Sequence record: PP554575
Reading direction: 5' to 3' (one strand)
Length of the DNA stretch: 64,000 bases
Origin: Escherichia phage PMBT16
In this document: positions 39,958 to 40,772 of the stretch, piece by piece
Layout: each line of letters starts with the position of its first letter
Position numbering within the stretch: the stretch's first letter is position 1
Program-made: the position numbers and the translations under genes
The notes under the pieces: model-generated
Told to the model about the DNA's origin: nothing
Seen by the model: only the letters and a program-made list of their open reading frames with translations
The model's database searches: none

Positions 39958-40242
39958 CTACCAGGTCACTGTCAAGTAGGCAACTGTGTTATTTTTCTCC
40001 GGAGAGATGCCAACAACATCCACCTGCAGACCTCCTGCCCTCAAATCCCCAACAATGTGTGGGAAGTAGTCTGAGAGGTGTGATGGGAGATTTATCGAAA
40101 ATCCACATCCCAGAAAGCCTGCTAACGCTTTATTTTGTATCTCCCCAACAATCGCATCATAAATAGAGTTAAGCTCGTCAGGAAGCGTTACAGGACGTTT
40201 TAGCGCTAACTGGTGCAACTTGTCCTTAGCACTCATTTTCAT
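39958..40242 (-). CDS. hypothetical protein (94 aa)
   Basis: ATG overlapping stop of Dam-like gene (ATGA). Confidence 0.5.
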   Translation of the reverse strand: MKMSAKDKLHQLALKRPVTLPDELNSIYDAIVGEIQNKALAGFLGCGFSINLPSHLSDYFPHIVGDLRAGGLQVDVVGISPEKNNTVAYLTVTW

Positions 40243-40772
40243 TTCAAGTCTGCCTCTGGTGGTGCCAACCACATAAATGGCGGCAAGTCTAGACGGTTTT
40301 TCTTGTCCCATACAAAATATGCATATGCCTGCCCATCCGTTCTACCATTAGATTGGAATGACGGACGCTTAGATATTGTGATCACAGTGGTAGGTGCATT
40401 ATCAAGCCACCATTCAAATCTGGCCTTGCTTTCCAGAAAATTAAGACGCAAAAGCATAATAACTACGTCGGCATCTTTCAACGCCTTGTCCACAAACTCA
40501 CGAGCCAGGCTGTACGGCGGGTTGGTGATAATACAGTCAACATGGTTGTATTCTGTATTCAGATAGTCAACACCTTCTTGGATTTCTCCCCATGCAGATC
40601 CTAACGGCATACGGGAGTAGAACACACCTGAGGCACTATTCCTGCAAGGCTCTAAGTAGGTCCAGTCTTCTGGGAACGGAATAAGGTCATACAGCCCTTC
40701 TGCACACCACTCCGGTGTCACATACTCATCGTAGGCGTTACGTTGTTCATCAGGTTTTCTAGCACAAGTCAT
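40239..40772 (-). CDS. DNA N6-adenine methyltransferase, small phage Dam-like type
   Basis: Catalytic IITNPPYS motif; size typical of phage Dam-like MTases. Confidence 0.65.
   Translation of the reverse strand: MTCARKPDEQRNAYDEYVTPEWCAEGLYDLIPFPEDWTYLEPCRNSASGVFYSRMPLGSAWGEIQEGVDYLNTEYNHVDCIITNPPYSLAREFVDKALKDADVVIMLLRLNFLESKARFEWWLDNAPTTVITISKRPSFQSNGRTDGQAYAYFVWDKKNRLDLPPFMWLAPPEADLK

Follow-up and report, generated by a model that had tools for sequence, protein, structure and literature searches.

Which sites does a phage methylate when it carries several DNA methyltransferases, and what does it gain? We address this question for Escherichia phage PMBT16, in a stretch of 64,000 nucleotides (sequence record PP554575) that we call the window. 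Two of its genes, both on the minus strand, encode a small methyltransferase, P1 (40239-40772), and a larger one, P2 (reading frame 55444-56292). An earlier note, made from the letters alone, had pointed to IITNPPYS in the first and to FIGNPPFG and VEPSAGRGSF in the second as catalytic signatures of amino-methyltransferases. It had called P1 Dam-like, and had proposed that the two enzymes, together with a C5-like enzyme, provide layered protection against several host restriction systems. Both open reading frames (ORFs) and all three strings are indeed there. Our best explanation as a whole, to which we give a probability of about 0.75, is that P1 and P2 are two orphan N6-adenine methyltransferases with which the phage methylates its own DNA, P1 at GATC, and P2 being derived from a type II restriction-modification (RM) system.

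Two divergent methyltransferases in a vequintavirus genome

Megablast of both gene regions places the phage with the rV5-like Escherichia myoviruses (Vequintavirinae, genus Vequintavirus), the BASEL phages Bas53 and Bas51 being closest. Compared with annotated phage genomes, positions 39000-42000 of the window are 100% identical to JohannBauhin (Bas53) and 99.9% identical to WalterGehring, which is Bas51 according to its locus tags. The window as a whole spans Bas51 coordinate 65929 to near 132625. Among the GenBank matches are some 18-33 records of the MG0656xx series that are named "Campylobacter phage" (host Campylobacter jejuni) and share 97-99% identity with E. coli vequintaviruses in both regions; these are probably mislabelled or contaminant assemblies.

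The motif (D/N/S)PP(Y/F/W/H) occurs five times in stop-to-stop frames of at least 60 amino acids in the window, and the only gene-length frames among these are P1 and P2. P1 matches phrog_799, "DNA methyltransferase", with an E value of 5e-67, and P2 matches phrog_5172 with an E value of 4e-129. Because these matches are strong, yet both proteins lie below every Pfam and NCBIfam cut-off, P1 and P2 are, as judged from their sequences, genuine but divergent methyltransferases. Both are predicted to adopt the class I fold of S-adenosylmethionine (AdoMet)-dependent methyltransferases, with a mean predicted local distance difference test score of 88.6 for P1 and 92.8 for P2. Each combines the features of the gamma class, namely a class I Rossmann fold, motif I before motif IV, and the sequence (N/D)PP(Y/F). 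Single-sequence searches of the PDB with the proteins gave nothing useful. The proposal that both are amino-methyltransferases acting on DNA therefore holds, on PHROG matches, folds and motifs, and in addition on a Bas51 mutant for P1 and on a type II family for P2. Most of this is already known: many GenBank records annotate P1 and P2 as putative N6-adenine methyltransferases, and P1 has been characterised.

P1 methylates adenine in GATC

P1 and the Bas51 protein bas51_0176 are identical at 177 of 177 residues and lie in the same gene neighbourhood, so they are the same protein; only the isolate differs, within one genus. This identity connects P1 to a published experiment. In that study, every Bas51 escaper of the retrons Asa1 and Squ1 was mutated in an "N6 adenine methyltransferase", for which no locus tag is given (Nakamura 2025; PMC12548924). 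When D69G, D79G and T83P were rebuilt in Bas51, nanopore calling of N6-methyladenine (6mA or m6A) showed that GATC methylation depends on the enzyme (PMC12548924). Among the three adenine methyltransferases and the Dcm-like protein of Bas51, we found D69, D79 and T83 only in bas51_0176. As the sole Bas51 methyltransferase with these residues, and identical to P1, bas51_0176 must be the enzyme hit by the escape mutations.

The published calls are close to complete. Wild-type Bas51 carries 1405 methylated adenines in GATC, 509 in GTAC and 576 elsewhere, and the T83P mutant carries 35, 511 and 349, respectively (Fig 4f, PMC12548924). By our count, the Bas51 genome has 703 GATC sites, or 1406 adenines, against the 1405 reported as methylated. 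P1 is a proven GATC METHYLTRANSFERASE that makes m6A; this was shown for the identical Bas51 protein and extends to PMBT16 by 100% identity. The earlier note had taken the lack of any m6A motif in phage DNA as what would speak against it, and in Bas51 methylation of both GATC and GTAC is all but complete. Methylated adenines elsewhere fall from 576 in the wild type to 349 in the P1 mutant; off-target activity of P1 may explain this or, equally, spill-over of the base caller beside true sites.

E. coli K-12 MG1655 is dam+. Since virion DNA of the P1 mutant is nearly unmethylated at GATC despite growth on this host (PMC12548924), host Dam evidently contributes little to the GATC methylation of virion DNA.

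P1 has the specificity of Dam but not its ancestry

If P1 were a Dam homolog, it should resemble Dam in sequence and architecture as well as in product. The product is the same: like P1, E. coli Dam, T4 Dam and DpnM (alpha class, PF02086 MethyltransfD12) make N6-methyladenine in GATC on both strands. Unlike these enzymes, P1 has its motifs in gamma order and lacks a separate recognition domain, and its chain is shorter by about 100 residues. Neither P1 nor P2 matches PF02086 (Dam/D12, alpha class) at E <= 1. The motifs of P1 run D-x-Y-x-TP, EPC, TNPPY, without an insert, which is the order of M.TaqI and not that of the alpha class. The catalytic string IITNPPYS covers residues 81-88, of which T83, N84, P85 and P86 are unchanged in 35 family members.

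A second family to consider is PF05869/TIGR01712, which we take to be that of the Dam enzymes of phages T1, HP1 and VT-2. Its members resemble P1 in being small (about 170 amino acids), phage-encoded and equipped with NPPY, and there is weak sequence similarity. P1 scores 19.2 bits against PF05869 (cut-off 28.1) and 16.1 against TIGR01712 (cut-off 97.05), and a relative that is 48% identical to P1 (P0083 in our set) reaches 25.1 bits against PF05869, also below the cut-off of 28.1. P1 is thus a distant sister of this family at best. Its match to the PADLOC model for type II methyltransferases is marginal (E 1e-3).

The fold and motif order of P1, as those of P2, are found in M.TaqI, M.BseCI, CamA and the methylase module of MmeI, at 14-20% identity. 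P1 differs from this group in that it lacks a recognition domain altogether: there is no C-terminal recognition domain, and the protein ends with its catalytic core at 177 amino acids. P1 is a gamma-class, TaqI-like minimal core that is Dam-like by specificity and falls outside the Dam family, and the GATC specificity that it shares with Dam is convergent, not inherited. The label "Dam-like" therefore survives as a statement about specificity, because G6mATC requires the identical Bas51 protein, and fails as a statement about family, PF02086 being absent and PF05869 below threshold. Judging by its architecture, this 177-residue core would read GATC at near-complete fidelity without the domain that its relatives use for recognition.

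P2 belongs to a family of type II restriction-modification methylases

P2 matches the PADLOC type II methyltransferase model MTase_II PDLC03255 almost end to end (E 3.3e-34; residues 8-253 on positions 2-249 of the 269-position model). Structural alignments to M.BseCI, MmeI, CamA and M.TaqI cover 225-250 of its 272 residues, and those to RNA methyltransferases about 150. The alignments to the DNA enzymes thus extend into their DNA-recognition domains, on which the C-terminal half of P2 superposes. P2 accordingly has a C-terminal recognition domain of its own, although a much smaller one than the M.TaqI group (272 amino acids for the whole protein, versus 421-580). In motif I, residues E35, P36, A38, G39, G41 and F43 are unchanged in 36 family members.

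To place P2 in its family, we collected 65 loci with P2 homologs from species-representative genomes and clustered the flanking ORFs. In at least nine of the 65 bacterial loci, from unrelated bacteria, a gene of about 200 codons lies directly downstream of the P2 homolog on the same strand. Eight of the nine encoded proteins match the PADLOC restriction endonuclease model REase_II PDLC03460 (best E 7e-16), and the conserved motifs of this partner nuclease are Q-x-H-G, S-x-K and K-x-D-x3-Q-R-R-x-Q-C. From this gene order and these matches, the P2 family is a family of methylase subunits of bacterial type II RM operons. We found no gene for the partner nuclease in any frame of the window or of Bas51, and the phage P2 is therefore an orphan.

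Two observations on the homologs may be recorded here. In Poseidonibacter ostreae (WFKJ01000010, our locus L004, positions 1198-8065), a P2-type methylase and its partner, the latter at 6805-7404, lie together with hsdM/hsdS genes of type I and an IS1595 transposase, and the whole splits an amino-acid permease gene; it looks like a mobile defence island. Many P2 homologs (P0129-P0237 in our set) have a precomputed match to the Pfam family PF26055.

Could P2 instead modify RNA? An m6A methyltransferase for ribosomal RNA (rRNA) or transfer RNA, of the METTL5/COG2263 kind, is suggested by the top PDB profile matches of P2, Ta1320 (6e-4) and METTL5, by the NPPF motif that P2 has in common with these proteins, and by the label "predicted RNA methylase" that JGI gives to several P2 homologs. 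METTL5, PH1948 and Ta1320 (COG2263, rRNA m6A) are also the closest solved structures to the P2 catalytic domain. However, the METTL5 and Ta1320 matches span just this domain of about 150 residues; the COG2263 proteins lack the C-terminal domain of P2, have rRNA as their substrate and do not occur in RM operons. The extra domain of P2 aligns with the recognition domains of TaqI, BseCI, CamA and MmeI, the match to the type II DNA methyltransferase model extends over the full length, and in nine or more bacteria, homologs of P2 share an operon with a member of a type II restriction enzyme family. We consider an RNA substrate highly improbable, and return to P2 as a DNA methyltransferase.

Which enzyme writes the GTAC mark?

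Bas51 contains 258 GTAC sites, or 516 adenines, and the published calls show 509-511 of these as methylated whether P1 is active or not. Only 20 GGTACC sites are present in Bas51, so the mark reflects a true 4-bp specificity. We know of no GTAC-methylating activity in E. coli K-12, and the mark must therefore come from a phage enzyme. By elimination and by enzyme type, we think it probable that P2 makes this P1-independent GT6mAC of Bas51.

Several features of P2 fit this assignment. It is built like those type II enzymes that recognise short palindromes. The proposed product of P2 is that of M.HpyAXII, M.PabI and M.CviQI, a likeness that we draw from published descriptions; M.HpyAXII, which makes GT6mAC, is a gamma-class enzyme that threads on M.TaqI and has its catalytic asparagine at position 87 (PMC2588503), compared with Asn 85 in P2. 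The two differ in length (331 amino acids for M.HpyAXII, 272 for P2) and in their nucleases, a member of the PabI "half-pipe" family in the one case and the REase_II PDLC03460 partner of the P2 family in the other. In the RM-bearing bacterial loci, GTAC is the most depleted 4-bp palindrome, weakly so (observed/expected ratio, O/E, 0.66; z -2.8). A fold search of BFVD with P2 found no relative of known specificity, and the source names of the P2 cluster members were uninformative on this point.

The other candidate is the third adenine methyltransferase, bas51_0070 (bas53_0069 in Bas53), a protein of 441 amino acids (Bas51 64456-65781; 14456-15781 in our locus L012) whose gene ends 148 bp before the start of the window. 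It is a beta-class enzyme, DPPF preceding FGGSG. Among solved structures, type III Mod subunits come closest to it, with 1e-28 for the Mod protein of H. pylori and 2e-24 for that of EcoP15I. Since both of its motifs are intact, this enzyme might write the GTAC mark, P2 then having another specificity or being inactive on virion DNA, and the 349 other methylated adenines left in the T83P mutant could hide a third motif. Type III Mod enzymes typically recognise asymmetric sites of 5-6 bp and methylate one strand. GTAC is palindromic and carries the mark on both strands, at 509 of 516 adenines. It is P2 whose architecture is that of type II enzymes acting on short palindromes and whose type II relatives match over the full length, and the known GT6mAC enzyme M.HpyAXII is gamma-class, as is P2. 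We therefore regard the Mod-like protein as an unlikely source of the mark, and continue with P2 as its probable writer.

Some observations count against our interpretation. Bas51 has three intact adenine methyltransferases but two reported motifs, which leaves either P2 or the Mod-like enzyme without an assigned product. A partner nuclease of the PabI type (the GTAC glycosylase family) can be rejected for the P2 family, as the profile of the partner has no PDB match at E <= 10, R.PabI included; this lack of likeness to PabI also favours the Mod-like candidate. The avoidance of GTAC in the RM-bearing loci does not reach significance once multiple testing is allowed for, and CCGG and CTAG are about as low. 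We found no measured specificity of P2 in the literature, and the retron paper (PMC12548924) names no GTAC enzyme. Finally, protection by P1 and P2 against restriction enzymes is an expectation, in a group that the BASEL study found to be highly sensitive to RM.

Taken together, we see about an even chance for a more specific joint proposal: that P2 is an orphan GT6mAC writer captured from a bacterial type II RM system, that the partners of about 200 amino acids are GTAC endonucleases unrelated to PabI, that GTAC avoidance and self-methylation act as two layers, and that the P1 core reads GATC.

What might the two methyltransferases do for the phage?

In the mechanism that we propose, P1 and P2 would act as AdoMet-dependent N6-adenine DNA methyltransferases on the phage's own replicating DNA, both as orphans. 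P1 methylates the adenine of GATC on both strands. P2 would catalyse the reaction through its N-terminal EPSAGxGxF and GNPPFG motifs, recognise its site through the C-terminal domain, and produce GT6mAC. The expected benefit would be DNA that is immune to enzymes cutting GATC or GTAC in the unmethylated state. The expected costs would be exposure to methyl-dependent sensors and the triggering of retrons whose reverse-transcribed DNA carries GATC, of which the triggering has been demonstrated.

Is a layered anti-restriction shield, then, the main biological role of these methyltransferases? We find this possible but somewhat doubtful. In its favour, 6mA at GATC and GTAC would block the cognate nucleases, and GT6mAC is known to block RsaI and R.HpyAXII (PMC2588503). 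The P2 family is derived from type II RM operons, and without P1, host methylation leaves the GATC sites of the phage uncovered. The distribution of GTAC sites points in the same direction. Bas51 has 258 GTAC sites versus 441 expected (O/E 0.59, z -8.7), and the O/E in the window is 0.71. Of the sixteen 4-bp palindromes, GTAC has the lowest z in the phage, and by O/E only CTAG is lower. The ratio is 0.90, near expectation, in a 50-kb sample of E. coli K-12, and this difference suggests past selection on the phage by GTAC-cutting enzymes. In Bas51, GTAC is thus a site that is both avoided and fully methylated.

Other evidence speaks against such a role. The BASEL study described the Vequintavirinae as "exceptionally susceptible" to RM and seemingly without "any effective protection", all RM types tested being active on them. 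The systems tested were EcoKI, EcoCFT_I, EcoRI, EcoRV, EcoP1_I and EcoCFT_II. Because these six recognise neither GATC nor GTAC, the susceptibility is compatible with heavy self-methylation; even so, the phage covers two 4-bp motifs, and to speak of several host systems is an overstatement. A search of the literature for vequintavirus methylomes or for RsaI, DpnI or MboI digests gave nothing besides the retron paper (PMC12548924). Bas51 mutants with a dead P1 plate at about 1-4e10 plaque-forming units (pfu)/ml on K-12, and the one demonstrated phenotype of P1 is harmful to the phage, namely the triggering of retrons Asa1 and Squ1 (PMC12548924). The Bas51 protein is also toxic to E. coli when expressed alone (PMC12548924).

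Alternatively, the main role of P1 could be DNA housekeeping in Dam+ hosts, where full GATC methylation might prevent nicking and breakage by MutH or serve the control of replication, packaging or transcription. This would agree with the near-absence of GATC methylation in P1-mutant phage grown on MG1655, and with a genome in which GATC is not avoided (O/E 0.98). P1 is conserved beside a ClpP-like gene across genera of the Vequintavirinae, with matches in 543 phage records, and lysates of P1 mutants have titres 2-3 fold lower. Yet these differences may be lysate-to-lysate variation, the mutants are viable, and the roles named are extrapolations from E. coli Dam and from the biology of the phage called P1. 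We hold this role to be rather improbable, and keep to self-methylation by two orphan enzymes as our account of what P1 and P2 do. As for why, the functional proposal of the earlier note is plausible but overstated: two complete 6mA marks and the depletion of GTAC are in its favour, and the susceptibility of the group to RM, the restriction to two motifs and the cost imposed by retrons are not.

Gene context and other features

The coordinates of the features discussed are collected in Table 1.

Table 1. Features of the two methyltransferase loci and of the Dcm-like gene in the window
Feature	Position	Strand	Basis or remark
P1, 177-aa orphan N6-adenine DNA methyltransferase, GATC-specific	40239..40772	-	
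P1 catalytic motif IV, T83-N84-P85-P86-Y87	40512..40526	-	sequence reading; activity lost in the Bas51 T83P mutant
Stem-loop 40792-40811 (AAGCCCTC-TTCG-GAGGGCTT) 3' of ClpP-like gene, then GGAG 40779-40782	40779..40811	-	sequence reading
94-aa gene, function unassigned	39958..40242	-	phrog_12158; 100% identical to bas51_0175
P2, 272-aa orphan N6-adenine DNA methyltransferase of the gamma class, recognition domain included; probably acts on GTAC	55444..56262	-	
P2 motif I (AdoMet binding), E35-P-S-A-G-R-G-S-F43	56134..56160	-	sequence
P2 catalytic motif IV, G84-N85-P86-P87-F88-G89	55996..56013	-	sequence; invariant in family
Terminator-like hairpin 56281-56300 (8 bp, 6 GC, T-rich tail) 3' of DnaQ-like exonuclease gene, then GGAGG 56267-56271	56267..56300	-	
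152-aa gene, function unassigned	55023..55481	-	phrog_9938; overlaps P2 3' end by 38 nt
"Dcm-like C5 cytosine methyltransferase" (Bas53 and Bas51 annotation), 254-aa ORF; the C5-like enzyme of the earlier note	1114..1875	+	

P1 starts with ATG at 40772, preceded by the GGAG with a 6-nt spacer. The stem-loop upstream was missed by a simple terminator scan because its T tail is weak. The stop codon of P1 overlaps the ATG of the 94-aa gene (ATGA), an overlap which suggests that the two are translationally coupled. Five genes downstream of P1, at 38487-39011 (minus strand), lies a "putative glycosidase" that is 100% identical to bas51_0171; in Bas51, a premature stop in this gene, R87*, helps the phage to evade retron Asa1 (PMC12548924).

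The mechanically called start of P2, TTG at 56292, sits within the hairpin 56281-56300. The true start, by position, is probably the TTG at 56262, which lies 4 nt past the GGAGG and gives the 272 amino acids of the BASEL records. The 152-aa gene that overlaps P2 is labelled as a second methyltransferase in some records. We found in it no methyltransferase or nuclease signature and no Pfam or PADLOC match, and rejected it both as a split part of P2 and as a nuclease partner, as it has its own PHROG and no similarity to the restriction endonuclease partner family. In two phage genomes, V18 (KY683736) and Alma (OV101294), P2 matches in two pieces, and this suggests a frameshift there, whether from sequencing error or from pseudogenisation.

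The Dcm-like ORF is 99.6% identical to bas51_0074. It has no Pfam or PADLOC match; the strings FDGSGG, FPPC and ENP are present, and a related Certrevirus gene has a reported HHpred match to a Dnmt2-like structure. We also considered thymidylate synthase as the C5-like enzyme and rejected it in favour of this ORF, the thymidylate synthase gene of the window (52418-53401, minus strand) being of the flavin-dependent ThyX type (Pfam Thy1) and not ThyA.

Elsewhere in the window, a homing-endonuclease-like ORF (44724-45581, minus strand) with DUF723, CapR, treble-clef zinc finger and T5orf172 matches lies beside the gene for the anaerobic ribonucleotide reductase. At this position Bas53 lacks a gene, which makes the phage of the window a mosaic relative of Bas53 and Bas51.

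Implications

A more precise label can now be given to the phrog_799 genes of the P1 type: those of vequintaviruses encode gamma-class GATC adenine methyltransferases and not "Dam" homologs. Because P1 is a known retron trigger, phages that carry it, PMBT16 included, should be sensitive to retrons of the Asa1 and Squ1 types. Vequintaviruses mark their own DNA with 6mA completely at two motifs or more, and the apparent paradox of a phage that methylates itself and is nevertheless sensitive to restriction is resolved by comparing the sites of the tested enzymes with the methylated motifs. New here, we infer that the GTAC mark belongs to P2 and that the P2 family is tied to one restriction-enzyme family. 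If the joint reading of GTAC is true, site avoidance and self-methylation would form a two-layer strategy of these phages against GTAC restriction.

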